64,000 nt of DNA from an uncultured Candidatus Peribacteria bacterium (GCA_964506185.1 CAZDKL010000004.1:179-64178), one strand, 5' to 3'; positions 48,163-64,000 are shown, counted from the stretch's first letter. The notes: generated from the letters alone by a model not told the origin. Numbers and translations: made by a program.

Positions 48163-48255
48163 TCAAGCTAATCCTGAAATCAAGCAAATCAAGGTTCAGA
48201 CAGACGTGGCGAAGAGCCCGGTTCCACCGGACTCTTCTGTTGACAACGATAGGCT

Positions 48256-48732: not shown

Positions 48733-48776
48733 GACTTCGTCCTCCCCGTTTGAAAAGTGGTTGTTGTAACTGATTT

Positions 48777-49355
48777 CTACTCCATGAGTTGCTCGCGAAC
48801 CCGTCCGATGGCGTCGATGATTTTCATCCTTTCCTCATCGAGCCTGACCATCTTCACCGGATTGCCCGATGACAATTGCAGAGCCGACAGGACCGTAAGC
48901 ATCAGCATGCCATTTGCGCGCACTTCGACAGCCCATTGATCGTGATATGCAATGGCGAAAGACATTGGCTGCGGATACCCCGTGCCGGTTTTGATCACGA
49001 CACTCGGACTCTTCACCGACACGTCGGCAGCAGAGCCACTGGCCTCCTGAGCCCCTTTCAGGAACTCGCACGCTTGCCTGCCAGCTCCTTCCAAATTTCC
49101 TTCTTTCAGCAAGCCAAGCATCTTCAAGAAATGTCCTTCACGGTCCCGAGATGAGCAACGAACATTGTCGACGCGAGTTGCCTCGCACACATTCAACATG
49201 TCTGCAACATCGAACTCGGCACAATTCTCTGCGACCAGTGTGTGCTTCAAGTCACTACTCACGATTCTATCTCCCCAAAAAGACGTCCAAAAAACAAAGG
49301 TTATATTCATAGACCCGGCGCGCCAAGCACCGGATCCGCCTATCTGTGCTGTCAA
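48777..49355 (-). CDS. Hypothetical protein, paralogue 2 (GC-rich island B)
   Basis: See 48256-48732. The conservation between the tandem paralogues supports coding. Confidence 0.6.
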   Translation of the reverse strand: MTAQIGGSGAWRAGSMNITFVFWTSFWGDRIVSSDLKHTLVAENCAEFDVADMLNVCEATRVDNVRCSSRDREGHFLKMLGLLKEGNLEGAGRQACEFLKGAQEASGSAADVSVKSPSVVIKTGTGYPQPMSFAIAYHDQWAVEVRANGMLMLTVLSALQLSSGNPVKMVRLDEERMKIIDAIGRVREQLME

Positions 49356-49501
49356 TGACCGCAGAAATCTAGAGAAAGACCTCTGGGACGCGAAATATTA
49401 CGTCTTTTGGCCTATTTAAGCAATCATTTGCACATTTAAATGAGGACGACGACCGCGGTAGCAGTCCTCGTCCAATGTTGATCGATCGGCCAATCCTTGG
49501 C

Positions 49502-49816
49502 CTATTCGAGGTAAATCGCCGCCGATGCCAGGTTGAGCGCAACGATGATCGTCGCAACAAACATGCAAAGGCTTACGAACATGAATGTGTAGGCAGCGAA
49601 CAGCATCGGACCTGTCTTCCTGCTCCGAGCCCATCGTTGCAATCCGTCAATGCACTTGGCGACAGAAAACGGTGCTTGCGTGGCAGGCTGTTGTGGCGGC
49701 TCTTCGTTTTCCTCGCCGCAAGCCTTCCAGCAAAAGAATCCGATTCCCGCCAGTAGAAAATCACCACCGATGCCCAGCAACAGAATAAAAAATGTCACGG
49801 TCCCGTACCTCCGCAA
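49502..49816 (-). CDS. Small membrane protein (GC-rich island B)
   Basis: Hydrophobic helices at the N-terminus (VTFFILLLGIGGDFLLAGIGFFCW) and C-terminus (MLFAAYTFMFVSLCMFVATIIVALNLA). Other ORFs overlap it, so the frame is uncertain. Confidence 0.4.
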   Translation of the reverse strand: MRRYGTVTFFILLLGIGGDFLLAGIGFFCWKACGEENEEPPQQPATQAPFSVAKCIDGLQRWARSRKTGPMLFAAYTFMFVSLCMFVATIIVALNLASAAIYLE

Positions 49817-49878
49817 AAAAGTAGTGAAAGGTCAATCGATTCAGACCTAAAGTATCATAATATCCAGTATTGTCAATA

Positions 49879-51483
49879 CTACCCCTTACTATTTCTCTTT
49901 ATAAGTCTCTTCCTCTGCATCGCAGTAAATAACTTCTTCCCCTGAGCAATGGAAATTTTTGCATTTAGCTTAACCTCACCTCCGTTTGCAGATGCATCTG
50001 GCATACCGGAGGTTTCATTAATACACTGAACTACTTCATCAACAGTTAATTCGCCTTGTGGCTTTAGAACCATATCAAGTTTTTTGGCTCCGTCTGCCTC
50101 CAGCATCGAATCAACATCGGTTATATCCTTTCCTCCTTCGCCTTTAAACTCAACATTCAACTTGTCTCGAGTGGTCCCCTTGCTATCGGTCGCATACCTT
50201 AGCAAGTTCACAGCCTTACCACGGTTTATCCAATCGCTTAAATCAACGCCCTGTTCATTTAATTGCTTTTGAAGCTGGAACATTTCCTCTTCATCTGCCG
50301 AAGCATCAAGGCGCATAAAACGAAAAGATGCACCGTCATATCTAATCTCCAATCCCTTATCTTCCCAATCCGAATTCATTTCCAACACGCGTTTAATAAC
50401 ACTTTGCTTCTGGTCTTCCGGACAATGATCAAACAGTGTATTTAGTTCGTACATAATACCTCTTCCTGTTTCGGTTCCCTGCGATTCAGTTTTGATATCT
50501 TTCAATAGTTGCTGTAACTCCTGCTCAAAAACTTTCGGATCTTCAACGCCCTTTGCTACCCAATCTATAGCCTCAGATGCTTCTGGTTGCCCCGTGGCAT
50601 CCACAGTGCGCATCGTTCTTCCATTCTCGGCTTCTGCCTGATACTTGTCATACATCAAATCAAACCATTTGTCTTCAGCTGCTGTAGTTTCTTGCGACAT
50701 GCTCTGATCGAATTGAGACTGTGCATTTTCTCTATTTTCTTCCCATAGCTCTCCAACTTGAGACATATGCACCGGTGTAGCATTCAACTTGCGCATGAAA
50801 CTGGTAACAGAGTTCGCCATAGAACCTGCAGCTCCACGCTCGATTTTTGCAACTCTTTGTTGCGCTGCTTCTCTGGATTCATCTTGGGCCTGCTCCACAG
50901 ACGCGCCGGAATTTAGCCTGCCTCTGATGTCGTTAACGAACTGCTTCTTTATTGGAGTTAAATGTTTTATCCATTCGTAAAAATTCTTTCCAACTAATTC
51001 TCTTTCTCCACCGGCCAACTGATCTGTTGCATGCTCGCAAAGCTCTTTTGCATCTCCACCTAATCTGGATTCCGCACTTTCAATAATATTTTCTCCTTTA
51101 ACCATTTTTTCGAATTCTTCCTCCCAATTCTTAACACTCTCCTGCGACTCTTCCTGTCCTTCTTGTTCTTTCTCCGGTCCCATTTCTTTCTCATCTCTTT
51201 TTTCTTCCACTTCTTCCATTGCCTCATTATCACTCGCTCCCATTTCTTCAACTGATTCATCCTCTCCCAATTCAGCCTTTGCTTTTTCTACCTTCGCTAA
51301 TTTATTGCCATTGCCTCCCGCATCCTTTTCAGCTTCATCTGCCTTCAGTCCGGTAAACTCCTGCAATTCCGCCAAAGTTGTTCCTTTAAACTCCACTGTA
51401 CCGCTTTCAAAACCTTCGTCGACTCCTTCGTCGACGCTATCGTTATTTTCGTTTTGCCCAAGCTGATCCGGTTTTCCACCCAT
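49879..51483 (-). CDS. Acidic hypothetical protein (534 aa)
   Basis: Long ORF with a Glu/Asp-rich N-terminal third. No family was recognised. Confidence 0.6.
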   Translation of the reverse strand: MGGKPDQLGQNENNDSVDEGVDEGFESGTVEFKGTTLAELQEFTGLKADEAEKDAGGNGNKLAKVEKAKAELGEDESVEEMGASDNEAMEEVEEKRDEKEMGPEKEQEGQEESQESVKNWEEEFEKMVKGENIIESAESRLGGDAKELCEHATDQLAGGERELVGKNFYEWIKHLTPIKKQFVNDIRGRLNSGASVEQAQDESREAAQQRVAKIERGAAGSMANSVTSFMRKLNATPVHMSQVGELWEENRENAQSQFDQSMSQETTAAEDKWFDLMYDKYQAEAENGRTMRTVDATGQPEASEAIDWVAKGVEDPKVFEQELQQLLKDIKTESQGTETGRGIMYELNTLFDHCPEDQKQSVIKRVLEMNSDWEDKGLEIRYDGASFRFMRLDASADEEEMFQLQKQLNEQGVDLSDWINRGKAVNLLRYATDSKGTTRDKLNVEFKGEGGKDITDVDSMLEADGAKKLDMVLKPQGELTVDEVVQCINETSGMPDASANGGEVKLNAKISIAQGKKLFTAMQRKRLIKRNSKG

Positions 51484-51593
51484 ATTTATTTTTGTTTATT
51501 TCTAGCCATTTTACCTTATTTTTGGGTTTTTATCAATCAGCATAAGAATATCATTTCCCTTTCGAGATTTGATAAGTAATATTAGTACACCTA

Positions 51594-51670
51594 AGGCGCG
51601 TAGCTCAGTTGGCTAGAGCACTGGTCTCCAAAACCAGGGGTCGAAGGTTCAAATCCTTCCGCGCCTGCCA
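51594..51670 (+). tRNA. tRNA-Trp (CCA), CCA end encoded
   Basis: AGGCGCGTAGCTCAGTTGGCTAGAGCACTGGTCTCCAAAACCAGGGGTCGAAGGTTCAAATCCTTCCGCGCCTGCCA folds as a cloverleaf with anticodon loop CTCCAAA. Confidence 0.93.
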
Positions 51671-53311
51671 CTCAATACAGAGATTTGGGTCTAATGGCCG
51701 CTTCTCTAATGTTTTAGAAACCGTATCATTACAATCAGATGATTCTAACCTTGCCTTTTGATTTGCTCCCGCAAGCGGGAACTTTGCGATAGTTGCGAAA
51801 GGTTCTTGATACTCAGCGGTCACTTTGCAGTCTTTTAGCACTAGGTTCGAACAAACAAGTAAAATAACCCCTCTCTTCTCCTCACATGAAGCCATAGCAA
51901 GATTATCCGGTAGGTTAATTAATGCTTCCACAAACGACTGGCAGTCATCAATCCATTGGGTGCCATCTCCATGAATAGCGCCGAGCTTGCTCTGAATTGA
52001 TTCTAAATCCTCGTTCAGCGCACGCTTTTGTGCAAGGTATTCTTCATCTGATAAGAGTTCTCCACTGACATTATTGGGTGATATTTTAAGCTGTAGTAGG
52101 CCATCTAGCTTCTGTTTGCAGGCATTGTACTGAGACTGCAGTTTCCTTCTTACTGACTCAGAAGATTTAGCTTCCGACTTATGGAGCTCACGGACTTTAT
52201 CACAGGCTGGCTTAATAAATGCTTCTGGAATGGACAAGTCTGTAAGTATACAAAGCAGTTGCTCCTGTAATTGTTCCTCGCGTATCCACTTGCGCTGATC
52301 ACATGAACCTTTTTTGTAAGTGCAGTGGTAGTACACGTGCCCTTTCTGCCACTCTGCAGTAATTGCACAACCACATTCACCGCATCGCATAAGACCACTG
52401 TAAGAAAACTGATGTCTGCGATGTCTTCCCTTAGATTTCCTTGCAAGTGCATGCTGTACCCGGTCAAACAGCTCTCTGGAAATTAAAGGGTCATGTTGAA
52501 TGTTTTCATTGTATATTTTTCCCTGGTAACGTATAGCTCCATAAAAGTAGGGGTTGGAGAGCAAATTTGTAAGAACACACTTGCTTAATTTCTTTTTACC
52601 ATTGCGAGTTTCTAGGCCGATCCCCTGAGCATAATTTTGGAGCCCGGCTAACGTATACACCCCCTTAGATGCCTCTTCGAATAACATTCTCAACAACTTC
52701 CCATCTATTGGGTCAATCTCCTCCCGTTTCAATGGCCTTTCCAGCTGTTCCAGTATTTGCTGCTTTTGTGGTGAGTATTGGGCTGGAGTAATGCGACCTG
52801 CCCTATCAATATTTAGAAAGCCCAATGGGACAGTCCCTGGAAGCTCGCCTTTAAGCAATTTGGATTTAATATCTCGCTTTACGAATTGGCTGTTGTCATC
52901 ACTACTTTTCTTTGCCATAGCGAAGTGTATCTGCATCATGAACTTATCGTCAGAGTGGCCTGTAAATTCACTCTCAGGTGTAATGATTTTCTTTATGACA
53001 TCATCATCCATCATGTAAATGATGCGCCCACCATCAAAGCTGTTCCTTGCCAAGCGGGTAAGGTGGTAGGTAAGTATGCAATCGACCTCGCCGGCTTCTA
53101 TCCTATTTAGCATCTTGTTAAATAATGGACGTCCTTTCTTGTACGCGCTTTGGCTCTCAACGTAGATGTCGACTATTTCGATATTATGATTCTCGGCATA
53201 TTCCAATAAGGTGCGCTTTTGGGCGTCATTACTTAGCACCTGTCGATCCTCACGTTCTTGGCTACGTCTGCAGTATGCAATTAGGCGGGTTGGGGATTCT
53301 TGATAGGACAT
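51605..53311 (-). CDS. Large serine recombinase (integrase)
   Basis: LIAYCRRSQEREDRQVLSNDAQ...CILTYHLTRLARN (resolvase domain), recombinase domain (GTVPLGF) and a Cys cluster (MRCGECGC...YYHCTYKKGSC). The last 66 nt are antisense to tRNA-Trp. Confidence 0.9.
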   Translation of the reverse strand: MSYQESPTRLIAYCRRSQEREDRQVLSNDAQKRTLLEYAENHNIEIVDIYVESQSAYKKGRPLFNKMLNRIEAGEVDCILTYHLTRLARNSFDGGRIIYMMDDDVIKKIITPESEFTGHSDDKFMMQIHFAMAKKSSDDNSQFVKRDIKSKLLKGELPGTVPLGFLNIDRAGRITPAQYSPQKQQILEQLERPLKREEIDPIDGKLLRMLFEEASKGVYTLAGLQNYAQGIGLETRNGKKKLSKCVLTNLLSNPYFYGAIRYQGKIYNENIQHDPLISRELFDRVQHALARKSKGRHRRHQFSYSGLMRCGECGCAITAEWQKGHVYYHCTYKKGSCDQRKWIREEQLQEQLLCILTDLSIPEAFIKPACDKVRELHKSEAKSSESVRRKLQSQYNACKQKLDGLLQLKISPNNVSGELLSDEEYLAQKRALNEDLESIQSKLGAIHGDGTQWIDDCQSFVEALINLPDNLAMASCEEKRGVILLVCSNLVLKDCKVTAEYQEPFATIAKFPLAGANQKARLESSDCNDTVSKTLEKRPLDPNLCIEWQARKDLNLRPLVLETSALAN

Positions 53312-53336
53312 AATTGGAGTTGGAAAGAAACAAAAA

Positions 53337-53435
53337 CCCAGAGGGCGGCCCTGGCTATCACATCAGCTATTCGCTGTGTGCAGGGCCGCCCTCTGGGCGG
53401 TATACAAAACCAAACGAATAGCAATGATGTGATAG
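53337..53435. repeat. Two interleaved inverted repeats between the primase-helicase and integrase genes
   Basis: IR1 (17 bp, perfect): cccagagggcggccctg (53337-53353) / cagggccgccctctggg (53381-53397). IR2: gctatcacatcagctattcg (53354-53373) / cgaatagcaatgatgtgatagc (53414-53435). Confidence 0.85.
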
Positions 53436-53443
53436 CAGGCTCA

Positions 53444-55342
53444 TTATAGCAGATCATCTTCGTTGTCTCTAATAATCGTTTTAAACTGCTCCTTGGTCGA
53501 ATATACCCACGGAGAATTCTCAATATCTTGGTCTTCCTTCTCGCGGTTAAGAATCCCAAGGTGGTAAAGCTCTTCCAAGTATCTTTTAATTGTCTTAGTA
53601 CTCATGGTCGTGATTCCTTCAGCTACATCTCTTCCTGTCAATTGGTCGGCAAAATTAAACTGGCGCAATACCTCAGCACGCTGAACAGGCATAGACGATA
53701 GTGCCACTTTTCGTATAGTGTCCACTTCAACTTGTGTTATACCTGTTTTAGCCCGTACAGTTGCAAGCGATCGGCAAAGAGTTCTTATCTGATGCAAAGC
53801 CCGAAAGGGTTCTTCTATCTGAACTCCAATAACATCCCTATAAACCACCTCCTTCCCCTCGTCGTCGACAAACTTGTTAGTAGTGGAGTCTACAATCCCA
53901 CGAGTACGAGCGATGAATTGGGCTATGTTGTTTAGCTGTTTTTTAATCTCCGGTTCTTCTGGTTCAAGCTGTAGGCCATGCTTTTTGATATGCTCGCAAA
54001 TCGAAATAACAAGGCTTATTGATGCCTTTGCAGCCTCAATACTTATTTGTTTGAAGTTGTCGTTCCAAGCATTGCTTAAGCATTCTTCCCGCTCCTCACT
54101 TGTAAGCTCAGGTATTCGTAGAGTAAGAAACCTTGGACCAACCATATTCATGTAGTTTTGGCGCATCTTAAGGCCTTGAGGCGTCACGCAGCCCACATGG
54201 GCAAATGTAGCCTTGTAACGGATTGTGCCCCGCGATCCACTGTGCTTGGAAAACTCTCCGTCATAAATCGACACCAGATCTGACAGCAGTTTCTTTACAG
54301 TTTCTTCGCTTCTGCCAAAGAAAGAGGTGTAATCCTTAACAATAAAACAACAACCATCCAGTTGCGGTAATAGATCTTGAGGATTCTCACTTTCCTTCAT
54401 TCCGGATATAAACGGAGCGCTGGTCATCACATCTATTGCAATAGTATCCGGTGCATAACGAAGCAAGGATACAAGCTCAGTCTTGTTGGAGCTCGGTGGT
54501 CCGACTAAAAGCAGCCAGAGCGGGTTCTTTTTCACAAGTTGCTTGCTTATATATGTTGCCAATGTAATCTCAACAACGTAATCATGAACGAACCCAAGTT
54601 GTCGGGTAAGTTCAAGCACATCTGCAAGTGAAGCGGGAGGCAAATTAGAAAGGTCCCTGAATTCCATAGGAGTTTGTGTCCCGCTTGCTTTATTAAGTAG
54701 GTCCTCTGGTATGTTGCCCACCAACTTTAATAGTCGGTCGGGCAATTCATCCTGCTCTTGCCTACATTGACACGCAAAATCAGCCATATCTCCGCCCTTT
54801 TTAAATTCTATTGGCCAATGAATCATCCGTAGTTTAATGTCAGGTCTTTTATCCAAAACTAGTTTTACTGCCGCCTCCATTGCTTTCCATCCCGCTTGGT
54901 CATTGTCGAATGACAACACAAGCTCGGCATTATTCGGGACATGCTCAAGGCATGGTTCAATGGATGTGGATGCACCAGTAGTTACTGTTTGAGCAGACAT
55001 TCCGTTCTGGATAAGAATTAAACAATCAAGCTCGCCTTCGGTTTGCCACACTCGATCAGGATTCTCTTCTTTCCAATAACTTGGTCCAAAAACACCGTTC
55101 CGTTTTCCGGGATTAAAAAGCCATTTCTTCTTTGGATCGCCAATTTTCTCTGATAAAGCAACTCGCAGTTTCCAAGCCGTAGTTTTGCCGTTAGCCTTCG
55201 CATTGGGGATGCAGATGTGCCCCTTGCTATCCAAAATAGTATAGGCAATTCCTATAAGGTCTATTACCTCGTCAGTAAGGCACTTTTTGGTTTTAAGTAA
55301 TTCTCGTTCTTTATCGGGCAATGATTCTATTTTTAGGTTCAT
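53444..55342 (-). CDS. Toprim-domain primase fused to a P-loop NTPase (primase-helicase) with a C-terminal wHTH-like region
   Basis: Toprim: VWQTEGELDCLIL...LVLSFDNDQAGWKAMEAA. Walker A-like LLLVGPPSSNKTE and Walker B-like CCFIVKDYT. Confidence 0.75.
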   Translation of the reverse strand: MNLKIESLPDKERELLKTKKCLTDEVIDLIGIAYTILDSKGHICIPNAKANGKTTAWKLRVALSEKIGDPKKKWLFNPGKRNGVFGPSYWKEENPDRVWQTEGELDCLILIQNGMSAQTVTTGASTSIEPCLEHVPNNAELVLSFDNDQAGWKAMEAAVKLVLDKRPDIKLRMIHWPIEFKKGGDMADFACQCRQEQDELPDRLLKLVGNIPEDLLNKASGTQTPMEFRDLSNLPPASLADVLELTRQLGFVHDYVVEITLATYISKQLVKKNPLWLLLVGPPSSNKTELVSLLRYAPDTIAIDVMTSAPFISGMKESENPQDLLPQLDGCCFIVKDYTSFFGRSEETVKKLLSDLVSIYDGEFSKHSGSRGTIRYKATFAHVGCVTPQGLKMRQNYMNMVGPRFLTLRIPELTSEEREECLSNAWNDNFKQISIEAAKASISLVISICEHIKKHGLQLEPEEPEIKKQLNNIAQFIARTRGIVDSTTNKFVDDEGKEVVYRDVIGVQIEEPFRALHQIRTLCRSLATVRAKTGITQVEVDTIRKVALSSMPVQRAEVLRQFNFADQLTGRDVAEGITTMSTKTIKRYLEELYHLGILNREKEDQDIENSPWVYSTKEQFKTIIRDNEDDLL

Positions 55343-55343
55343 T

Positions 55344-55643
55344 TTATTGAGGGAAATAAGATAAAAGAAAATCTACCGCTTCCATGAGGTTGCAATCGCG
55401 TACATGCATAACAAGATCAATTGGAGATCCGCCTGTGACGCCTCCAAAATCTTTTCCGGAGAAGCGGTAGAAAGAATTTGTCTTCTCGAATACTGTTAGT
55501 GATGAAGGTTCTTTGGGGTTGTTTGGATCTTTCATTTGCCAAGTATTGAAACCAACTCGGATCAGATCCAAGTTAAGAATGTCCGCAACATACATGATGG
55601 GAATCTGTCGCAGCCTCTGGAAATCAATCTCTTTCTTTGCCAT
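55344..55643 (-). CDS. Primase zinc-finger-like (CHC2-like, cysteine-less) small protein
   Basis: IPIMYVADILNLDL......PSSLTVFEKTNSFYRFSGKDFGGVTGGSPIDLVMHVRDCNLMEAVDFL mirrors the DnaG/CHC2 N-terminal layout, but the Zn ligands are replaced. Confidence 0.5.
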   Translation of the reverse strand: MAKKEIDFQRLRQIPIMYVADILNLDLIRVGFNTWQMKDPNNPKEPSSLTVFEKTNSFYRFSGKDFGGVTGGSPIDLVMHVRDCNLMEAVDFLLSYFPQ

Positions 55644-55827
55644 GACACTTACAAGATGGAAACTCAGAGTCGACGTGTAGGTGCGCCCCCCACTTATCAG
55701 CTAATTGCATGATTGCATCATAGAAATCCTGATAGCTTTGATCTGATTGTTTTGAGCCGTTGTTTGTAATAGAATTTGACATGTTAAAATGATTAGAAAA
55801 TAAGCTCCTCCGCTTGACCCATTGCAT
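55624..55827 (-). CDS. Small hypothetical protein
   Basis: ORF in the same minus-strand operon. No family was recognised. Confidence 0.4.
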   Translation of the reverse strand: MQWVKRRSLFSNHFNMSNSITNNGSKQSDQSYQDFYDAIMQLADKWGAHLHVDSEFPSCKCHGKERD

Positions 55828-55829
55828 AC

Positions 55830-55988
55830 TTAGGGGGGAGCTCTTTTCTTATGCCCAAGGTCAATCACAAACTTGATTAGTTGAGCTAGCCGTTCCTCAT
55901 ATTCTTTGGCTTGCTCTGGGGTAAGCTGGCAGCCATATAACTGATTCCAGCATTGTCTAAAGTTGCCGCTTTTGTCTTGTGCATTCAT
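55830..55988 (-). CDS. Possible 52-aa protein (below the ORF-track cutoff)
   Basis: My own translation: MNAQDKSGNFRQCWNQLYGCQLTPEQAKEYEERLAQLIKFVIDLGHKKRAPP. It shares an ATGA start/stop overlap with the upstream gene. Confidence 0.35.
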   Translation of the reverse strand: MNAQDKSGNFRQCWNQLYGCQLTPEQAKEYEERLAQLIKFVIDLGHKKRAPP

Positions 55989-56221
55989 TGATGGCAATCG
56001 AAAACAAGCCCCTTAGCCTCTTTGTAAGACATAAGAAGCGATCGTGCCGGGCATACCAGATCCCCGCTCCAAAAACCTTGTACGGCCTCTTGAAGCCCTT
56101 CAGAATCTTCAAAAACGAACGTTACACGTCCTGAGTCGGCCGATCTCTCGATTCCTGTAACTCTAAAGCCCTCATGAATGCATGTGGCGGCCAGTGGAGT
56201 TGAATAGGTCTTAAATGGCAT
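55985..56221 (-). CDS. DUF5659-like small protein
   Basis: FKTYSTPLAATCIHEGFRVTGIERSADSGRVTFVFEDSEGLQEAVQGFWSGDL follows a pattern I recall for DUF5659 (unverified). Confidence 0.5.
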   Translation of the reverse strand: MPFKTYSTPLAATCIHEGFRVTGIERSADSGRVTFVFEDSEGLQEAVQGFWSGDLVCPARSLLMSYKEAKGLVFDCHQ

Positions 56222-56413
56222 ATTCGCGGCAAATTCAAATAAAAAAGAGCCCCAAGTAGGGGCTCTGTACTTACATTACTTATGTGCTAAATAATGAAAA
56301 AGGAAACGTAGTACATGATTTTTTCAGATTCAAAATTGAAGCCCTAAGAAGCATTTTGCTTGATTACCATGTCATGGGTGTATAATCCAGCACTGATCTT
56401 CCCCCTTCTTTTT

Positions 56414-57763
56414 ATGAAAAAGAGTGTAACTCAAGTGATGTTTACTTGGCTTTTTGTCTCTCTGATATTGGCTCCATCAATTGTAAATGCCGACGCTGGT
56501 AGCTGCGCGCGTGATTGTCTCGATGATGCGATCAGGAGGGGTATGGGAATTGGTAGTGGCTTACATATGAGATGTGTAGAAGATTGTGCACTTGAGGAAG
56601 AGAGACAGAAAGAATACAACGATAAAATGCTTGAATTTGAACTCGAAAGAATACAAAGAGAGGAGCAACAGGCACAGGAGCAAAGAGAGATGGAAGAAAG
56701 AATGCGCGAGCTTGAGGCAGAGAAACATCGCATAAAAATGGAGAGCCTACAAAGAGAACTCGATTCGCAACAGAGACAGCAATCTCAACAGCCTTCATCG
56801 CCCTCAATGAGCAATGATGATTATATGAGACAGTACTATGACAACAAGACCCCAGCAGTTAAATGCCCCAAGAATTCAAGAGGTGCTACTGCAACCGAGA
56901 AGACGGAGAAGCCAGGGGTGATGTGCATATGCCTTGTAGGGTTTGGACTCGATGAATCTGGTACCCGTTGTGTCGAAAAGAAATATGCTCAACCGGCCAA
57001 GAAAGCACAAACTGAAACTAAGGAAGCTGATGACAATTGCATGCCTCATGCAAAGCTGTCAGCAGATGGCATGTATTGCGATTGTGACGAAGGTTACGAA
57101 GCAGATGCAACAGGTGCATATTGTTTCCCAATAAGAGAGGATGCGCAGTCTACATACAATGGTAATCAAAAGAGTAATTGGAGTGGGGAGCTGCCAACTG
57201 ACACTGAGGAAAATGCATGGTATAGCAACAACCTGAAGCATTTTCTTGGACAGGGTGTAATCAAAGAAGATAAGCCATTCAGGCCATCTGAATCTGCAAC
57301 TCGGGGAGAACTCATCGAGTTGATTGTTAAATCTTTGGGAATTGCCTTAAACGAAATAACACACATAACAGAACCTAGCTTTGATGATGTGCCAGGATAT
57401 CAACAGGACGCATTTGAAAAAGCAGCAGTCAGGGGTATCACAAAGGGTGATGGCGATTGTTTGGGAACACATCCTTGTTATGCGTATCCGGACAGAAAGA
57501 TTAACCGCGCAGAGGCTGCAACTTTGATATTTAGAGCATTTAACCTTGGTGGCGCTGGTGTAACTGGAAAGGGGCCTACTTTTTCGGACGTTGAGCCGGG
57601 TTCTTGGTTTGCAGAAACGATACGAACAGCTGGTTATTATTGCATTCTAAGGGGTGACTCTGGATCAAGTAATGTAAGACCCGGTGGCAATCTAAATAGA
57701 GCCGAGATGATTACGATGGTAAGGCGTGCAGAAGGGCAGGAGAGGTATCCGAACTGCCAATAA
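56414..57763 (+). CDS. Secreted coiled-coil / Cys-rich protein with three C-terminal SLH modules
   Basis: Signal peptide MKKSVTQVMFTWLFVSLILAPSIVNA, a Glu/Gln/Arg coiled coil and EGF-like CxCxxG[FY] modules. The SLH modules are colinear with the host S-layer anchor (PSFDDVPGYQQDAFEKAAVRGITKGDGDCLGTHPCYAYPDRKINRAEAATLIFRAF; FSDVEPGSWFAETIRTAGYYCILRGD..VRPGGNLNRAEMITMV). Confidence 0.85.
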   Translation: MKKSVTQVMFTWLFVSLILAPSIVNADAGSCARDCLDDAIRRGMGIGSGLHMRCVEDCALEEERQKEYNDKMLEFELERIQREEQQAQEQREMEERMRELEAEKHRIKMESLQRELDSQQRQQSQQPSSPSMSNDDYMRQYYDNKTPAVKCPKNSRGATATEKTEKPGVMCICLVGFGLDESGTRCVEKKYAQPAKKAQTETKEADDNCMPHAKLSADGMYCDCDEGYEADATGAYCFPIREDAQSTYNGNQKSNWSGELPTDTEENAWYSNNLKHFLGQGVIKEDKPFRPSESATRGELIELIVKSLGIALNEITHITEPSFDDVPGYQQDAFEKAAVRGITKGDGDCLGTHPCYAYPDRKINRAEAATLIFRAFNLGGAGVTGKGPTFSDVEPGSWFAETIRTAGYYCILRGDSGSSNVRPGGNLNRAEMITMVRRAEGQERYPNCQ

Positions 57764-57797
57764 TTATCTGTGTCTAAGGCGAGGTGGCTAAGGTATA

Positions 57798-58250
57798 TCA
57801 TTCGTCATCCCAATTTTGGGTTGCCTCCTGAGTATTATTCTTCACCTTTTCATTAAGACCAGCATCATCCCAATCAGCGATTACTCGGTTTTTTGAGCAT
57901 TCCATAATCATCTGGGTAATTGTAAGATCTCCGTCCACAGAATGCACAAATCTGGGCGAATATTGCTTCTTACATCTTCTTTCAAGTACTTTTAGAGCCA
58001 AGTTACTGTCTTCTTTAATCCCTTTTGTAATCGACTTCTTGGCTTCGATTTCCAGATTCATTTGTGCAATGCGCATTTCGTCAGAAAAGTCCTTATCCTT
58101 CAGGTGTCGGTAATATGTGTCTTTGCTTATACCGGCATAATCGCAGGCTTTTTCTACGGTTAAATCCAGTTTCAGAGCCTCAGTGAGTTTTGCGATAGTA
58201 GCGGGTGTTATAACTGATGGACGACCTGTTTTTGCTTTAGAAGTTGTCAT
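57798..58250 (-). CDS. Terminase-small-subunit-like HTH protein
   Basis: KTGRPSVITPATIAKLTEALKLDLTVEKACDYAGISKDTYYRHLKDKDFSDEM...ALKVLERR. ATG 58250 is preferred over TTG 58286. Confidence 0.6.
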   Translation of the reverse strand: MTTSKAKTGRPSVITPATIAKLTEALKLDLTVEKACDYAGISKDTYYRHLKDKDFSDEMRIAQMNLEIEAKKSITKGIKEDSNLALKVLERRCKKQYSPRFVHSVDGDLTITQMIMECSKNRVIADWDDAGLNEKVKNNTQEATQNWDDE

Positions 58251-58301
58251 GAGTAAATGATATTTATCTTTACTCGGGTAAGGCAAGGAAGTGTAGTGTG
58301 G

Positions 58302-61300
58302 TTATTTAAGGCGGTGTTTTGTAAAAAGCTTATTTAACGACGATCCTCCATTAAATCCTCTGGATCCTCTATATAGTGCTTTATTTATGGTACGCCAGGT
58401 CTCACCACCACTATTTGGTATCTCACCGCTTTTTTCATTTGGCCATTTTCCATTTGTTTTATTAAAATCTTTAGCCCATTTAATGATTTTAGATTCAGAT
58501 AAACTTGGTAGATTTCTGCTATTTCTCAATCCTCTTTCCTTGCTCAATAACTTTGCAAGTGAACTGCCACTTGGTAAACCCCTAACGCCATTCTGAAGAT
58601 ATGTATCAATACTAAGCCAAGTATACTGGGGCATTTCTTTTATTTTTCCACTTTTTGTATTTGGCCACTTCCCATACTTTTTCTTGTAAGCATCGGCCCA
58701 TCCTAAAACTTGATTTACAGTTAGTGGTTTTTGCTGATGCTTGTGTTCTTTTAACCCCTTGCTTGCTAGCAAGTTAGCTAACGTTGTCTTTTGTAAACCC
58801 CTATTTCCTCGGAATAAAGCACCATCGACATCACTCCATTTCTCGTTAGGGCAATCAATTATCTTGCCTGACTTAGCAGTAGGCCATTTCCCTGTCTTTT
58901 TATGATGATTTTTAGCCCACTCAATTATTTGATCATACGTCAGTATTGGCAAAGCCCTTTTAACTCTTAGCCCCCTGTTTTTAGCAAAGACTTTTGCCAA
59001 AGACATATCTTTTGGAAGTTGTCTTGTACCTCTTATTAGAGCTGTGTTAATACCTGTCCAAGTTTCTTCTGTTCCTTCAATTTTTCCAGATCTTGTATTG
59101 GGGTACTCTGCATTTTTTTTCTTATAATCATCTGCCCATTTTAATATTTGCTCAACAGATAAATCAGGTAATTCTTTAATATGTCTTACTCCTCTATGTT
59201 CTTTTAATAACTTTGCCAACGAAGAATTCTTTGGTAATCCTCTAGAACCTAAATTCAATGCGCCATCAACAATGGGCCAAGTATCTTCTGGAGACTCATC
59301 TATACTTTCAAACAGTTTTGCATGTGGCCAGTCTCCATGTTTCTTTTTATACGAATCCATCCATTCTAGGATTAAATCTATTTTTAGATCAGCCTTTTTA
59401 GCCCCAACTTTAATAATCTTAACAAGAAGATTCTGTTCAAACTCTCTTGGTAAAACTGTGTGAATGTCGACTTTTACTTGCGACGGCATTCTCACCTTTC
59501 CGCTTGCCCTACGTTTACCAACTTCCATTCTATATCCCTCCAGCTCTTCTTTAAGCGACTCGTCGTGCTGCTGAAGAGCTTTCAAAACATATCCCACAAT
59601 CTTAAATGCAGAACTATCCAATGCCTCCTCCTCATCATCAGGATTTATAAAAACAGGTACTAGAATGGTTCCAGCCTTGTTGTCGGGGGTTTTCCTAATA
59701 GCCCGCCCCACAGCCTGCACAATGTCTATTATTGAGCTCTTGGGATCAACAAAAGCAATTCCATCCAAGGCAGGTATATCCACTCCTTCCTTAAGGCAAG
59801 CACAGTTTGTAAGAAGCGCACGTGTTGTTTTTGGTAGCGCTTTGAAATCCTCTAATAAGGTCTTCCTCTGCGATGCGGGAGTTTTTCCGGAAATATGATT
59901 GAACCAAAGGTCCTTTGCCGGTTTTCTCTTCATTAGCTTAATAGTACTAGGCAGAGAGTCTTCCTTATTCTCATCAATGAAGTCCTTTGCCTTCTTAACA
60001 GACGAATGGAAGGTTATCATCTTCGTTATGTCATATTTCTTCATCGCCTTTGCTATAGCCATCTGTGTTGCCATAGTGCGCGCATCAGAAAGGATTCCGC
60101 TTCTAGTCTTAATTAGTTTGCCTTTTTCAACCATCTCCTTGGCTTCCTCTTCAGACACAACAACAATGGCCACCTGATAGTTGTTAAGTAAATTCTGCTT
60201 AATGGCCTGCCCAAAAGAAAGCTCACTAAAAACAGGTCCGTAAAGCCCCTCGTCATCCATTGATGCTATTTCAAAGTCCACTTCGCCCGCTTTGTCCTTA
60301 ATAACCTGCTTAATGTACCTCTCGGTTGCCGTCATGAAGAGCCGCTTCTTGCCACGAATATTTTTGTCATCCAGTGCAAAAGTGAATTGCCTGCCCATAT
60401 ATCCTGTACACCTATGCGCTTCGTCAAAAATAATTAAATCAAAGTCGGGACAACCCTCCTGAGCTTCTTTTAGTAGCTTGGAGCTCTGGTATGTACAAAA
60501 CACGATAGTTGGCTTGCTTGTCTTTCTTTTGAGGAATCCATGAATCTCCTGAGCATCCGTAGTTACATCGATGCCATATGAAGAGGCCGATTCAGATTCG
60601 CCGCTATCTGTTGTTTCATCCGAGCAGATGATCAGATATTCATAATCATCTCTTCGCTCTTTGTTCCAGGACTCGACCGTTTGTGCAACAAGCGAGATTG
60701 AAGGAAATAGAACAAGTGTCCTTTTTGGTTTCATCTTTTCCTTGACCCAAAGAGATATAAGCGTCTTACCGGTACCACATGCACGAATGAGTCTGCCCCT
60801 GTTATGCTTTTTAAAACCCTTCAGCACTGCGTCAATAGCCTTCTTCTGATCGGGTCGGGGATTTTTTTTAGGTTCCCTTTTCGTTTTTTCTTTTAACTTA
60901 GTTGGCCACGGAGTCTTCTGTGCCTTTAGATCGCCACGCATTACAAGAACGCACTTCTTTGATAGCGATGAAAATAACTCCTTCGCGTTTGGACCGATTT
61001 TGTCGGTAGTGGCTATGAGCATCCTCTTGTCGATCACCTTTCGTTCGGATTCAGAAATAAAAGAATCTATTCCGCTTTTTGGGATCACATAATCCGGGCT
61101 GTAATTCTTAACCTGAATTGCCCAGATCTTTCCCTGTTTGTCCTCAGCTATCAGGTCAATTCCTTTATCAATTCCCCAGTTCTTCGGCCACTCTTCCCAC
61201 AACCAAACGTTTTGGAATTGTGGCTTAAACTCAGTTCTAGCTTCAATTAGACGCTTCTTTATAACCTTTTCAAAGGCTTTGCCGTAGGCTGTTCCCTTAG

Positions 61301-61367
61301 CTTCCTTTCTTAGTTTTGTTTCCAAATACTCAAAGCTGCCCTCTTTGAATTTTATTGCCTTAGTCAC
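58302..61367 (-). CDS. Mrr-like PD-(D/E)xK nuclease fused to an SF2 (ResIII/DEAH) helicase and five C-terminal ~73-aa repeats
   Basis: N-terminus GIDLIAEDKQGKIWAIQVKNY (Mrr_cat-like). Walker A ACGTGKTL and DEAH box IIFDEAHRC. Helicase C motifs TNCACLKEGVDIPALDG...VQAVGRAIR. The five repeats follow W.....KK.G.WP..KSGKI.....W..I..AL..G.RGLP..SSLAKLL...RG. Confidence 0.85.
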   Translation of the reverse strand: MTKAIKFKEGSFEYLETKLRKEAKGTAYGKAFEKVIKKRLIEARTEFKPQFQNVWLWEEWPKNWGIDKGIDLIAEDKQGKIWAIQVKNYSPDYVIPKSGIDSFISESERKVIDKRMLIATTDKIGPNAKELFSSLSKKCVLVMRGDLKAQKTPWPTKLKEKTKREPKKNPRPDQKKAIDAVLKGFKKHNRGRLIRACGTGKTLISLWVKEKMKPKRTLVLFPSISLVAQTVESWNKERRDDYEYLIICSDETTDSGESESASSYGIDVTTDAQEIHGFLKRKTSKPTIVFCTYQSSKLLKEAQEGCPDFDLIIFDEAHRCTGYMGRQFTFALDDKNIRGKKRLFMTATERYIKQVIKDKAGEVDFEIASMDDEGLYGPVFSELSFGQAIKQNLLNNYQVAIVVVSEEEAKEMVEKGKLIKTRSGILSDARTMATQMAIAKAMKKYDITKMITFHSSVKKAKDFIDENKEDSLPSTIKLMKRKPAKDLWFNHISGKTPASQRKTLLEDFKALPKTTRALLTNCACLKEGVDIPALDGIAFVDPKSSIIDIVQAVGRAIRKTPDNKAGTILVPVFINPDDEEEALDSSAFKIVGYVLKALQQHDESLKEELEGYRMEVGKRRASGKVRMPSQVKVDIHTVLPREFEQNLLVKIIKVGAKKADLKIDLILEWMDSYKKKHGDWPHAKLFESIDESPEDTWPIVDGALNLGSRGLPKNSSLAKLLKEHRGVRHIKELPDLSVEQILKWADDYKKKNAEYPNTRSGKIEGTEETWTGINTALIRGTRQLPKDMSLAKVFAKNRGLRVKRALPILTYDQIIEWAKNHHKKTGKWPTAKSGKIIDCPNEKWSDVDGALFRGNRGLQKTTLANLLASKGLKEHKHQQKPLTVNQVLGWADAYKKKYGKWPNTKSGKIKEMPQYTWLSIDTYLQNGVRGLPSGSSLAKLLSKERGLRNSRNLPSLSESKIIKWAKDFNKTNGKWPNEKSGEIPNSGGETWRTINKALYRGSRGFNGGSSLNKLFTKHRLK

Positions 61368-61446
61368 GGGCTTATTCTACCTCTTTGTTGGGTTTATTTT
61401 CCAAAAAATAATAGCCTTTCATAGTATCAGGGTGTATAAGTATCGT

Positions 61447-62079
61447 ATGAAAGCTGGGAAGATTTCTGCATTTATGTTGTTTACGCTGATTTTTCTAACA
61501 GCTTGCTCGCTACAAGGCAATGTGTCTTTGGACGAACTCAACGAGCTAAAAAACCGAATTGAAGTTCTCGAGGATGAAAATCAGGAGCTCAAGGAGGTAA
61601 TTGAGGATGAACAAAAAGCAGAACTGGCACCCAAGCCAACGACCCAGCCCGCACCAAAAGCAGTTGTTCCCGTAAAAGTGGATAATTCAGCAGAGCTCAA
61701 AGAGCAACGCGAGGCCTTATTAGCAATTTATTTAGATTTTAAGGATCTGGAGACGTTACTAAATGCTGAAATAAATAGAATAAGTTTGCAGCATCAGGCG
61801 ATTGCAGTGGATAACACTCGGATTGCAAAGATAATGTACGATCCATCGACACCGGATAGCGAGTTTTATGAGGCCAAAAGACAAGCGGCTGAATATGTAG
61901 AGATCATGAAGGAAACGATGCCAGAAAGTGAAAGACTGTATAAACAATTGAAGGAAGTAATAATTATGAAAACAGCCGTAGAAATAATGCGGCATAACAA
62001 TGCTGAGGGGAAGCTGCTTACTGATTCTGATTACGACAAGCTTGCAGAAATGGAGAGATGGAACAATCAATATCGATAA
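61447..62079 (+). CDS. Lipoprotein with a coiled-coil leader (paralogue family)
   Basis: MKAGKISAFMLFTLIFLTAC, then LNELKNRIEVLEDENQELKEVIED and a Pro-rich linker. Confidence 0.75.
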   Translation: MKAGKISAFMLFTLIFLTACSLQGNVSLDELNELKNRIEVLEDENQELKEVIEDEQKAELAPKPTTQPAPKAVVPVKVDNSAELKEQREALLAIYLDFKDLETLLNAEINRISLQHQAIAVDNTRIAKIMYDPSTPDSEFYEAKRQAAEYVEIMKETMPESERLYKQLKEVIIMKTAVEIMRHNNAEGKLLTDSDYDKLAEMERWNNQYR

Positions 62080-62084
62080 TTAGT

Positions 62085-62492
62085 ATGGCGAGGCTACTTT
62101 TTCTAGCACTGGCATTGATTACACTGACAGCATGTGATGCTTCAGAGCAAAGCAAGTTGCATGATGATCTTCCAGCAACAGATTCTCAGGAAGCTCGCGA
62201 AAAAATTGCCAATAGGCAATTGGTTAATATTAAATACCGAGAGGATCCTGTCGATGTTGCAGGCTTCGATTACCTAAATACTCCCCGGAGCTCTTTTGTT
62301 AGAGGTGCATGGTATGACTCCGACAACCAATACATGATTATTAACCTCAATGGCACCAATTATCATTATTGCGGACTTCCAAAGAGCACCTGGCGAAAGT
62401 TCTCTCGCTCTGATTCGTTTGGTAGATCTTATAATCAGACCATAAAGAATAGGTATGATTGTAGAATCAATCCCGTACCCAATTATGATTAA
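62085..62492 (+). CDS. Lipoprotein with a KTSC-like domain
   Basis: Lipobox LALITLTAC. FVRGAWYDSDNQYMIINLNGTNYHYCGLPKSTWRKFSRSDSFGRSYNQTIKNRYDC follows the KTSC pattern. Confidence 0.65.
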   Translation: MARLLFLALALITLTACDASEQSKLHDDLPATDSQEAREKIANRQLVNIKYREDPVDVAGFDYLNTPRSSFVRGAWYDSDNQYMIINLNGTNYHYCGLPKSTWRKFSRSDSFGRSYNQTIKNRYDCRINPVPNYD

Positions 62493-62521
62493 ATGGCTTT
62501 GGTATTACTCTCGCTCCTCAT

Positions 62522-63130
62522 ATGAAATTACTACTAACAATTCTGCCAGCTCTATTTGTGTTTACAGCCTGTAGTACTAAGACAGATCCTGCAGTAGATG
62601 ATCTCAAAGAGCGAGTAGAAAAACTTGAGGAAGAAAACCGACAATTAAAACAGAAGAAAGAACCGGCTGTTGCACCAAAGCCTGATAAAGCTGCAGTACA
62701 AAAAAAAGTACCGATAACCACAGCACCAAAGAACGAGCCAAGCGATGCACTAAAATTAAAAACCCCATGGTATATGCAACCAACTGAGTCTATACCAGAA
62801 AAACCTGTATTCTACAATTCTTCAAGCAATTTGGTGAAAGATAAATGCACAGAAATACGTAATCAAGAGGAGGCTGCAAAAAATGAAACAATGCAAAATT
62901 ATTTGGAAGCACAGACTGATCTTCGTGAGCAAAACCTTGCGTCTAGGGCAGACCTAGTATCCAAGCTCTCTCACCTAAGTCCAGCTGCAAGACAAAGGAT
63001 TCTTGCCGAACAAGATTCACTATCAAAAGAATCACTAGCCGCTATGGAAAATTTGAAAAATATTAGAATGGATGCAATTGAGTCGGCTTACGATAAAGAG
63101 TATGCCAAAAATGGGTGCAGTTTTTATTAA
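62522..63130 (+). CDS. Lipoprotein with a coiled-coil leader (paralogue family)
   Basis: MKLLLTILPALFVFTAC, then VDDLKERVEKLEEENRQLKQKKEP and a Pro/Lys linker. Confidence 0.75.
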   Translation: MKLLLTILPALFVFTACSTKTDPAVDDLKERVEKLEEENRQLKQKKEPAVAPKPDKAAVQKKVPITTAPKNEPSDALKLKTPWYMQPTESIPEKPVFYNSSSNLVKDKCTEIRNQEEAAKNETMQNYLEAQTDLREQNLASRADLVSKLSHLSPAARQRILAEQDSLSKESLAAMENLKNIRMDAIESAYDKEYAKNGCSFY

Positions 63131-63215
63131 GATGTTGCATGTTAAAAGAAAAAATAATATTAACAATTCCGTTTTATAAACAATCCTCAATTGTGCTGAT
63201 ACAATTCCCAGTCCA

Positions 63216-63449
63216 ATGCCAACTGCAAAAACAACTTTGCGGCTTACTCTCTTTAAAGTTGAGAAAACCAAGTGGAAAGCGGCAGCGAAGCGTCACCGCC
63301 TCAGGCTTTCTGAATTTGTCAGATGGACTGTAAATACCAAGGTCAGGATTCCGACGATAGATCTGGCGGAGAAGCTCGAGAAAAAGAGACCGGAGCAGAT
63401 GTCGATCATTGATGTTACGAAATATGATGCTCAAACTTCAATGTTTTAA
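63216..63449 (+). CDS. Ribbon-helix-helix (CopG/MobC-like) protein
   Basis: TLRLTLFKVEKTKWKAAAKRHRLRLSEFVRWTV has an RHH-type beta-strand plus helix signature. Confidence 0.5.
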   Translation: MPTAKTTLRLTLFKVEKTKWKAAAKRHRLRLSEFVRWTVNTKVRIPTIDLAEKLEKKRPEQMSIIDVTKYDAQTSMF

Positions 63450-63583
63450 CACTGCCGATACATTAAATGGTACCTAAGGGGGTATGGGACCCTGCGGGGG
63501 AATGGGGGTGGGTGCGACGTATGCGGACCAGAAAAAAGGATTGTTAATGTTTTCCATTTACACTTTTTGTTATCATATCTGGT

Positions 63584-63976
63584 ATGGACCTCACAGTGCT
63601 CAACATAAGCAAAGTTAAATCGACCGAAGAAGCTAGCAAGCTCATGAAGGAATCAGCTGTCCTTTTATATATTTTCTTCGGTATTCAATTGTTTATGGGT
63701 GTCTTTGCTTATCCTGTATTACAAGATGTACAAGTGTTCTTAGTGCCTATAGCGCTGTTACTAATGATAGTGGTTGTCCATAGGTTTAAAAACAGAGCAA
63801 TTTCGATCGTGATGCTATGCTATTTGCTATTGGAGCTAGCAAACAGGCTATACAACAAGTTCACAGATCAACAGCCTGCGGCCTTTATTTTAGTTGCAAT
63901 TGTTTGCTATCTTTCGGCGCAAGCAACATATGCTGCAATAAGTATTAAGAGATTCTCAAAAACAAAACAAAGATAG
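63584..63976 (+). CDS. Small membrane protein (3-4 TM helices)
   Basis: Hydrophobic helices: VLLYIFFGIQLFMGVFAYPVL, VFLVPIALLLMIVVV, AISIVMLCYLLLELA and AAFILVAIVCYLSAQA. Confidence 0.55.
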   Translation: MDLTVLNISKVKSTEEASKLMKESAVLLYIFFGIQLFMGVFAYPVLQDVQVFLVPIALLLMIVVVHRFKNRAISIVMLCYLLLELANRLYNKFTDQQPAAFILVAIVCYLSAQATYAAISIKRFSKTKQR

Positions 63977-64000
63977 GACACAAACTCCTATGACTATATC

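Follow-up and report, generated by a model that had tools for sequence, protein, structure and literature searches.

The DNA analysed here (the ‘window’) is a stretch of 64,000 nucleotides from an uncultured Candidatus Peribacteria bacterium (GCA_964506185.1), corresponding to contig C4:179-64178 in a genome of 1.36 Mb and 51 contigs; the contig itself ends 107 nt past the window. The right-hand part of the window holds ‘Element 2’, a complete integrative element of 12,389 bp that runs from position 51671 to 59 nt past the window end (64059 in the same numbering); the name sets it apart from another element of the same genome, ‘Element 1’. Working inwards from the tRNA-Trp gene on the left, we see a gene for a large serine recombinase (LSR) that converges on the tRNA, a structured spacer and a set of replication genes on the same strand, followed by genes for surface, nuclease and other proteins on both strands (Table 1). 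All the genes that an initial annotation of this DNA had listed for the element are present where it placed them.

Table 1. Features of Element 2 and its insertion site, in window coordinates (ORF, open reading frame)
Feature	Position	Strand	Basis or remark
tRNA-Trp(CCA)	51594-51670	+	ARAGORN and Rfam, 72 bits
Proximal core CCTGCCA (attL)	51664-51670	+	last 7 nt of tRNA-Trp
Large serine recombinase (int), integrated form, 568 aa	51605-53311	-	Resolvase PF00239 3.6e-18, Recombinase PF07508 1.6e-7, Zn_ribbon_recom PF13408 2.5e-10
Hairpin (structured spacer)	53337-53353 / 53381-53397	-	perfect 17-bp inverted repeat (I2), then U-run
Replication protein, Toprim primase-helicase, 632 aa	53444-55342	-	Toprim_2
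99-aa ORF, DnaG CHC2 zinc-ribbon homologue, cysteines lost	55344-55643	-	phrog_5629 primase, 7e-4
67-aa ORF, doubtful	55624-55827	-	not conserved; no gene call on identical metagenome contigs
52/55-aa ORF	55830-55997	-	ATGA overlap with DUF5659 stop; called as 52 aa on identical contigs
DUF5659 protein, first gene of conserved core	55985-56221	-	PF18903, E = 2e-6
Secreted Cys-rich protein, C-terminal triple SLH anchor	56360-57763	+	SLH domain match
terS-like / excisionase-like helix-turn-helix (HTH) protein, 162 aa	57798-58286	-	phrog_4102, 1.6e-16; weak HTH_17 and ‘excise’ matches
Mrr nuclease-SF2 helicase, 1021 aa	58302-61367	-	Pfam Mrr_cat_2 + ResIII + Helicase_C
Three lipoproteins	61345-63130	+	lipoboxes LTAC, LTAC, FTAC
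Lipoprotein 1, 210 aa as called	61447-62079	+	lipobox; gene call on identical contigs
Lipoprotein 2, KTSC domain	62058-62492	+	lipobox; KTSC match, 6e-12
Lipoprotein 3	62522-63130	+	lipobox
Ribbon-helix-helix (RHH)-like protein, 77 aa	63216-63449	+	strand-helix-helix pattern; no database match incl. Pfam
Membrane protein, 130 aa, last element gene	63584-63976	+	ORF and hydrophobic segments
Detached int 3' end (attP P arm)	63994-64053 (63994-64000 in window)	-	encodes GMLNVIRTLGHPYYTALGI plus stop; rebuilt junction
Distal core CCTGCCA	64053-64059 (contig C4:64231-64237), past window end		repeat of tRNA end

Extent of the element and its empty sites

The left edge of the feature, position 51594, coincides with the first nucleotide of a genuine tRNA-Trp(CCA) gene, the single tRNA-Trp among the 47 tRNAs of the genome and 100% identical in element-free sister genomes. 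In G005 and G006, sister species from the genus of our bacterium, we see the same left flank and the identical tRNA-Trp followed directly by a gene for a GT2 glycosyltransferase (234/247 aa), and then by a 548-aa gene that forms the start of contig C14 of our own genome (C14:4-1596). Element 2 is absent from both, and is therefore an insertion relative to the sister genomes; the initial description of it as a real integrative element is upheld.

The same annotation had taken the right end to be out of view and had suggested extending the contig. A metagenome contig (L031), which is 100% identical first to C4:63586-64285 and then to C14:1-8976, closes the 893-nt assembly gap between C4 and C14, and leads to the chromosomal GT2 gene 178 nt past the last gene of the element. 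When this last gene was looked up in public assemblies by its exact protein, 24 contigs were returned; in every sufficiently long contig among the ten displayed, which come from ten samples, the 130-aa membrane gene, the 178-nt spacer and the GT2 gene follow one another. The arrangement in L031, together with the layout of the sister species, means that Element 2 ends within the spacer and contains no virion genes; downstream lie the GT2 glycosyltransferase and core chromosomal genes, with no phage structural genes among them, so that the earlier statement that virion genes are missing up to the window end holds beyond it.

Within the spacer we find a second copy of CCTGCCA, the last 7 nt of the tRNA-Trp gene, a sequence with just these two occurrences (tRNA end and 178-nt spacer) in the 14.8 kb examined. 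The right end thus lies 53-59 nt past the window end, on the same contig, and the earlier size of ‘at least 12.4 kb’ was correct. As this 7-nt direct repeat bounds the element, the tRNA stays intact. The sequence past the distal core resembles that which follows the tRNA in G005, with a downstream arm that pairs with the tRNA 3' end; in other words, the former trailer hairpin.

Other candidates for the right end were tried and rejected. There is no long direct repeat of the 3' part of the tRNA in the genome that could serve as attR, a local alignment of that part with the right spacer lacks significance (p about 0.065), as does the homology between the right end and the 70-76-nt spacers found behind tRNA-Trp in G006 and G003. 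‘Partial tRNA-Trp copies’ in relatives, considered as attachment (att) scars, turned out in G003 and G020 to belong to a second, tandem tRNA-Trp-like gene, of which they form the 3' part. No overlap was found between the end of contig C4 and other contigs of the assembly.

A number of side observations concern this locus in the host and its relatives. Upstream of the GT2 gene, the start of the C4/C14 assembly gap is marked by a short repeat in tandem, CAGTATTC CAATATTC CAATATTC CAGTATTC (C4 end; L031 701-760). In two element-free genomes (G006:C44, L021; G003:C39, L023) a 12-nt direct repeat of the tRNA 3' end, CCGCGCCTGCCA, is located 70-76 nt downstream of tRNA-Trp, and may be the scar of an earlier integration. 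The tandem tRNA-Trp(CCA)-like gene lies directly behind tRNA-Trp (L023, G003:C39, ~2100-2460; L027, G020:C18, ~23977-24189) and carries a GC-rich hairpin insert of 45-50 nt in its D-loop; it is kept in two genera, and may be either a D-loop-intron tRNA or a pseudo-tRNA. The left flank of tRNA-Trp, window 46558-51483, varies among sister genomes; it contains a TPR protein, GC-richer small ORFs (48.2-49.8 kb) and a 534-aa protein without a Pfam match. In comparison with window 46558-51670, two species of the genus (L024, G001:C6; L025, G002:C75) have the stretch that runs from the TPR gene to tRNA-Trp in inverted orientation with respect to its flanks, which makes the tRNA-Trp locus a rearrangement hot spot.

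The integrase gene, its detached tail and the att sites

The integrase (phrog_95 integrase, 2.8e-62) has the features by which large serine recombinases are defined, insofar as they were tested: resolvase, Recombinase and zinc-ribbon domains, a short core and an offset arm motif. The same Resolvase + Recombinase + zinc-ribbon architecture is found in the LSRs of phages and mobile elements (Listeria A118/LI, Bxb1, phiC31, TP901-1, SPbeta SprA), and the protein aligns over its full length with the integrase of Element 1, including the RRS motif with the candidate catalytic Ser. In its integrated form the reading frame extends 66 nt into the tRNA on the opposite strand, such that its last 21 residues (548-568, WQARKDLNLRPLVLETSALAN) are tRNA antisense. 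The closest relative (G365, 62-63% identity) is likewise located at a tRNA-Trp gene.

Joining the two ends of Element 2 at the core rebuilds a circular attP of the form ...AACGTTCAGCATGC-CCTGCCA-CTCAATACAGAG..., and joining the flanks an empty-site attB of the form ...CCTTCCGCG-CCTGCCA-TAAACCACTCGCC.... Across the circular junction the int frame remains open for 19 more codons (...IEWQ-GMLNVIRTLGHPYYTALGI; tail GMLNVIRT...), the protein ending ...IEWQGMLNVIRTLGHPYYTALGI in the circle form and ...IEWQARKDLNLRPLVLETSALAN in the chromosomal form. In G365 the same 7-nt core is found 24.3 kb downstream, preceded by CCCATAGTTCTGATAACGTTCAGTACGC where Element 2 has CCAAGGGTTCTGATAACGTTCAGCATGC, and the rebuilt join reads ...IELWQ-GVLNVIRTMGDP..., with a tail GVLNVIRT against the GMLNVIRT of Element 2; the P arm GTTCTGATAACGTTCAG is kept between the two elements.

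This construction was applied to nine elements (Element 2, G365 and seven others) at five tRNA types: Trp, Asp, Phe, Glu and Gly. In all nine a repeat of the tRNA end, 6-10 nt long, is present at the far end, and int stays open for ~17-27 codons across the rebuilt junction. The seven others are G163 at tRNA-Trp (10,971 bp; tail DLVNFIRSYF), G357 and G287 at tRNA-Phe (11,994 bp, PTVEAIRTFF; 29,211 bp, PVVEAIRTFW), G204 and G349 at tRNA-Glu (29,476 bp, PLVETIRTFW; 28,939 bp, PLGEMIRTFW), G115 at tRNA-Gly (6,653 bp, GLLESITTVM) and Element 1 at tRNA-Asp (10,039 bp, GVEETILELLNV).

The far-end arm of Element 2 contains a T-loop-like sequence, GGTTCTGAT, positioned exactly 5 bp further from the core than the T-loop in the tRNA itself. 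We tabulated this motif for eight of the elements and read the ninth arm, that of G365, from its sequence. The GTTC of the real T-loop is at -23 in 8/8 tRNAs, and [GA]TT[CG] is found at -28 from the tRNA-type end in 7/8 of the tabulated P arms (GTTC in six, Elements 1 and 2 among them, and GTTG in G115); the eighth, G163, has CTTC, and G365 has GTTC at -28. At the DNA level the ‘IRT’ seen in many of the tails is the antisense of the T-loop-like GGTTCNNAT. Element 1 reads the same GTTC motif in a different frame, and the constraint on the DNA is therefore primary. Saying this, in the five IRT elements none of the three variable motif sites changes the amino acid, and three relatives have tails that resemble one another over 25 residues, so that the tail is probably constrained as a peptide as well.

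A short common core and a displaced arm motif are both familiar from serine integrases. Cores of 5-8 bp are typical (PMC8092301), against 7 bp here, and the structure of the LI integrase predicts a zinc-ribbon-domain motif that is 5 bp further out in attP, that is, 5 bp nearer the centre in attB (PMC3783163), which matches the arrangement read from the Element 2 sequence.

From this we infer the following scheme. attB would combine the T-arm of the tRNA and its acceptor 3' strand with about 15-20 nt of trailer sequence, and attP would lie within the last codons of int; the zinc-ribbon domain would read GTTC in both arms, at the 5-bp offset, and strand exchange would occur inside CCTGCCA, with the tRNA left intact. 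Because attP lies inside int, integration would swap the last codons of the gene, detaching 19 of them and putting 21 tRNA-antisense codons in their place, and excision would restore full-length int on the circle.

Upstream of int, the hairpin in the structured spacer (53337-53397) has a folding energy of -61.5 kcal/mol (z = -6.06; 0/200 shuffles fold as well) and ends 12-25 nt before the int ATG, with a promoter-like TAGAGA-17-TATAAT and upstream TG, found by pattern scan at 53471-53443, upstream of it. It looks like an intrinsic terminator or attenuator. With a terminator-like hairpin and a promoter-like site in this position, the integrase gene is unlikely to be just the final member of the operon, and its expression may come from read-through; thus, of the single minus-strand operon in the initial annotation, the genes stand whilst simple co-transcription of int probably does not. 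Placed behind a strong terminator hairpin, int would probably be kept low by attenuation. A further GC-rich hairpin followed by a T-run is seen at window 56246-56266 (-), in the divergent intergenic region between the DUF5659 and SLH genes.

Two side observations concern the tRNA targets of relatives. An exact 36-nt copy of the tRNA-Trp 5' half is found 286 nt upstream of the element-bearing tRNA in G163 (L072, G163:C1, 14048-14083 and 14370-14405). In G183 (L079, G183:C9, ~12640-12900) the integrase that is closest but one (51% identity) runs into a tRNA 3' half, which is followed by a structured insert and not by a normal 5' half; this tRNA may contain an intron and have been missed by ARAGORN.

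We estimate a probability of roughly 70% for the reading as a whole: that Element 2 is a complete element without capsid genes, placed by its own LSR at the very 3' terminus of the single tRNA-Trp gene. Several points weigh against it. The 7-nt core alone would be expected about 0.7-1.8 times by chance in this length, and for this reason the boundary rests on the combined lines of evidence; the conserved ‘IRT’ of the tail follows in part from the DNA motif; no symmetric, mirrored or dyad motif is seen in the P' or B' arms; and no replication origin or iterons were found. The search for circular or extrachromosomal copies in metagenomes, suggested in the initial annotation, gave 0 matches to the circular (attP) junction pattern in viral contigs and JGI metagenome contigs, the strain-matched empty-site pattern likewise had 0 matches in JGI metagenome contigs, and 10/10 displayed contigs that carry the last gene hold the integrated form. 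With only integrated copies on these contigs, mobility is putative and Element 2 may be fixed.

These last results are also what would be expected of an immobilised island, one that arrived by serine-integrase integration, is now fixed in the chromosome of the species and is kept for the value of its cargo only; the host-like GC content of Element 2 and the alteration of the chromosomal integrase by loss of its tail can be added on that side. We nonetheless think such an island quite unlikely. The core genes are without exception intact and free of frameshifts, the 19 detached codons of int still form an open tail whose P arm is kept with G365, and the absence of circular forms is weak evidence, as assembled contigs rarely show minority circles. 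The element-free sister species and the patchy distribution of the primase-helicase (34/401 genomes of the class, 30/229 genera) both point to recent mobility.

Replication module, cargo and the origin of the element

The 632-aa replication protein begins with a DnaG/T7-type Toprim primase domain (about aa 1-210), continues with a P-loop helicase-like domain in which a Walker A-like GPPSSNKT is seen, and has a winged-helix-like C-terminal end; its AlphaFold model (pLDDT 88) gives T7 gp4, Twinkle and MCM as best Foldseek matches. The C-terminal 400 aa correspond to no Pfam model and have relatives only in proteins whose source is named as the Candidate Phyla Radiation (CPR) or is without name, where the domain either stands alone or is fused to Toprim or Prim-Pol. 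This helicase-like domain is found in none of 50,697 phage and 72,556 plasmid records; searched with the protein as a whole, phage records match the Toprim domain alone and plasmid records match nothing, and no relatives of the primase-helicase are present in viral contigs.

The neighbouring 99-aa ORF contains one Cys, and ORFs of 47-53% identity are located at the same position in seven relatives; longer or similar relatives match PF01807, the DnaG CHC2 zinc ribbon (8.6e-21), so that the protein is predicted to be a split primase partner. Of the two tiny ORFs named in the initial annotation, the 52/55-aa one stands, with its ATGA overlap and a same-sized ORF in relatives (53 aa at the same position in L088 and L089; 45% identity to the ORF of G365), whereas the 67-aa one, which is neither conserved nor called, does not. 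DUF5659 homologues of 35-44% identity occupy the same position in five relatives. On the circle, replication would proceed via a split DnaG-like primase (the Cys-less zinc-finger protein plus Toprim) fused to the CPR-specific helicase-like domain, with DUF5659 and the small ORFs as probable conserved replication partners.

Among the distal genes, that of the SLH protein is semi-core in the closest sub-family (44% identical homologues in L070 and L089), and the protein is 42-44% identical to chromosomal SLH proteins. The Mrr-helicase matches PADLOC PDLC03597 over aa 12-625 (1.2e-120), that is, the nuclease-motor half of Type ISP/IIG restriction enzymes; the methyltransferase is absent, and the C-terminal part is formed by tandem repeats of about 73 aa (period 219-222 nt). 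The 77-aa protein initially named as RHH has the strand-helix-helix pattern and 43-54% identical homologues in three relatives (L070, L088, L089), being a semi-core gene near the far end, but the name draws no support from database matches. A 20-nt inverted repeat (I4, AATATTAACAAT..., 63156-63175 / 63532-63551) brackets this gene, and its copies may be operator sites. The cargo as a whole (SLH protein, lipoproteins, Mrr-helicase, terS-like HTH, RHH-like and membrane proteins) would probably serve surface remodelling and defence.

No virion, relaxase, coupling-protein or type IV secretion system families were found among the ORFs scanned against Pfam, PHROGs and NCBIfam, the NCBIfam scan covering 9/14 ORFs and the five distal ORFs being outside the PHROGs scan. 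An element of this content could in principle be what is left of a temperate phage whose structural genes have gone, and the phage-type PHROGs matches of integrase and primase, with the one terS-like gene, would suit such an origin. We regard a decayed prophage as very improbable: both att sites are clean ends with no structural-gene fragments, the helicase-like domain is without a match in the phage records, and the same compact architecture recurs in relatives of 6.6-29.5 kb, in which virion genes were not searched for and the cargo of the few proteins scanned is metal resistance.

The terS-like HTH protein is a candidate regulator, directionality factor or packaging protein. If the last, Element 2 could be a phage satellite of the kind represented by P4, by the phage-inducible chromosomal islands (PICIs) or by the phage-inducible-chromosomal-island-like elements (PLEs), packaged into the capsids of a Peribacteria helper phage with the terS-like protein redirecting packaging; the initial annotation had already called the element ‘satellite-like’. 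PICIs (including the SaPIs of Staphylococcus aureus), P4 and the Vibrio PLEs are, like Element 2, islands of 10-15 kb with an integrase, their own primase-helicase, a small-terminase-like gene and no virion genes, so that size and gene set (one terS-like gene by phrog_4102) do fit; PLE satellites moreover use a large serine recombinase, and a lone terS-like gene is present too in Element 1 of this genome (GP3_package, 1.5e-15). The two terS-like proteins are, however, mutually unrelated by BLASTP, and the one in Element 2 gives excisionase-type HTH matches too, albeit weak ones. The gene lies outside the conserved core of the family (0/15 related loci by tblastn, bar two Prim-Pol contigs), and the protein has no relative in viral contigs. 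Its few relatives with context adjoin Prim-Pol/PriCT replication genes in two of the three contig families examined, and no neighbour in the three is annotated as terminase. Replication by way of a CPR-only helicase-like domain is a further difference from the known satellites, and no helper phage, cos/pac site, capsid-redirection gene or capsid-remodelling gene was identified. The satellite character is thus unproven and, in our judgement, unlikely; a plasmid-like integrative episome is the more likely of the two.

A family of serine-integrase elements at tRNA ends

Beyond this genome, the same succession is kept in at least ten loci of the class: DUF5659, zinc-finger protein, primase-helicase (or just the helicase-like protein), serine integrase, then a convergent tRNA. 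The cargo varies, with the SLH and RHH proteins in the closest sub-family and, in the 29-kb elements (G204, G349, G287; L076-L078, L101-L103), a P-type ATPase and a cation-efflux protein with an HMA domain, in other words heavy-metal cargo. Integrases of this type are present in 153/401 genomes of the class; a tRNA gene is convergent with the integrase in at least 25 of the best 30 integrase loci, and at least 13 tRNA types are used. Our literature search found no paper that deals with Peribacteria integrases or with serine recombinase elements in Patescibacteria; a CPR family of serine-integrase elements at tRNA ends was thus not found described in the papers searched, and Element 2 is a real and complete member of it.

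Our own genome holds a third large serine recombinase, G000 C18:11780-13428, that ends about 50 nt from a tRNA-Arg(CCT) gene, and a region, G000 C20:10532-26808, in which two inverted tRNA-Ser(CGA) copies 16 kb apart flank serine-recombinase fragments. A wrap-around tRNA on contig L089, considered as the sign of a circle, was rejected as an artefact of the circular mode of ARAGORN, its 5' part being unpaired.

The initial annotation had placed Elements 1 and 2 in ‘one family’, and this is borne out for the integrase and the design of the att sites. Both integrases are full-length large serine recombinases, 26% identical in protein alignment (as distant as the integrases within the primase-helicase family are among themselves), and both int genes run antisense into a tRNA 3' end, with a 6-7-nt core repeated at the far end. 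The family does not extend to the replication genes, as Element 1 has a DnaD-like loader and Element 2 the Toprim primase-helicase, nor to the terS-like genes, which had been listed as shared. Similarity between the lipoproteins, also listed, is confined to the first 50-87 N-terminal residues; the CxCxxG[YF] motif of the supposed Cys-rich modules is real, yet tiny, and in the whole genome three stop-to-stop frames of 100 aa or more carry it. With a common integration module and differing replication and terS-like genes, we take Elements 1 and 2 to be two different elements on the same integration module.

A broader account of the two would be that they are co-resident members of a large family of capsid-less, self-replicating CPR episomes, in which serine integrases took over the tRNA niche of tyrosine integrases and the zinc ribbon reads the T-loop and its +5-bp copy in attP. 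Since attP sits inside int, there would be two forms of the enzyme, a tailed, full-length one made from the free circle only and a tail-swapped one made from the chromosome; together they would serve as an intrinsic sensor, biasing integration against excision. We put this forward tentatively, as a possibility with the odds against it. Passage from cell to cell might occur by uptake of the free circle or, possibly, by a ride in a helper phage.

The nearest parallels among known systems each share a part of this arrangement. The pSAM2-type elements of actinomycetes and other integrative plasmids are small (about 11 kb), tRNA-sited and replicate after excision, as Element 2 would by inference; those of pSAM2 type differ in using a tyrosine integrase and an FtsK-like transfer protein, in place of a serine integrase with no transfer gene seen. 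In the SSV-type integrases of archaea, attP lies within int and integration into a tRNA gene alters or splits the integrase. For the tyrosine integrase of the myxophage Mx8 (IntP/IntX), too, an attP within int and a C-terminus altered by integration are reported, according to the account cited in PMC4383910. Both are tyrosine recombinases with long tRNA-derived cores, whereas Element 2 has a serine recombinase and a 7-nt core; conversely, an attP inside the coding sequence of the integrase itself sets Element 2 apart from the phage and mobile-element serine integrases listed above.

It is usually stated that tyrosine integrases use tRNA genes and that serine integrases insert into protein-coding genes. 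The authors of Islander (2014) described serine integrases as not known to target tRNA genes, and those of mycobacterial prophages disrupt protein-coding genes (PMC8092301), unlike Element 2, whose target is a tRNA 3' end that is left intact. A clade of serine integrases that target the terminal bases of tRNA genes, across at least 13 tRNA types in one CPR class, breaks this textbook rule, and does so with an attP that imitates the T-loop at the structurally predicted 5-bp offset. It provides concrete, testable rules for the recognition of att sites, along with a panel of probably orthogonal short-site integrases whose targets are universal and conserved. To our knowledge, there are almost no genetic tools for CPR bacteria; vectors for them could naturally be built from a small element whose att sites are defined and which brings a replication module of its own, and the split integrase gene is a possible state-dependent regulatory device.

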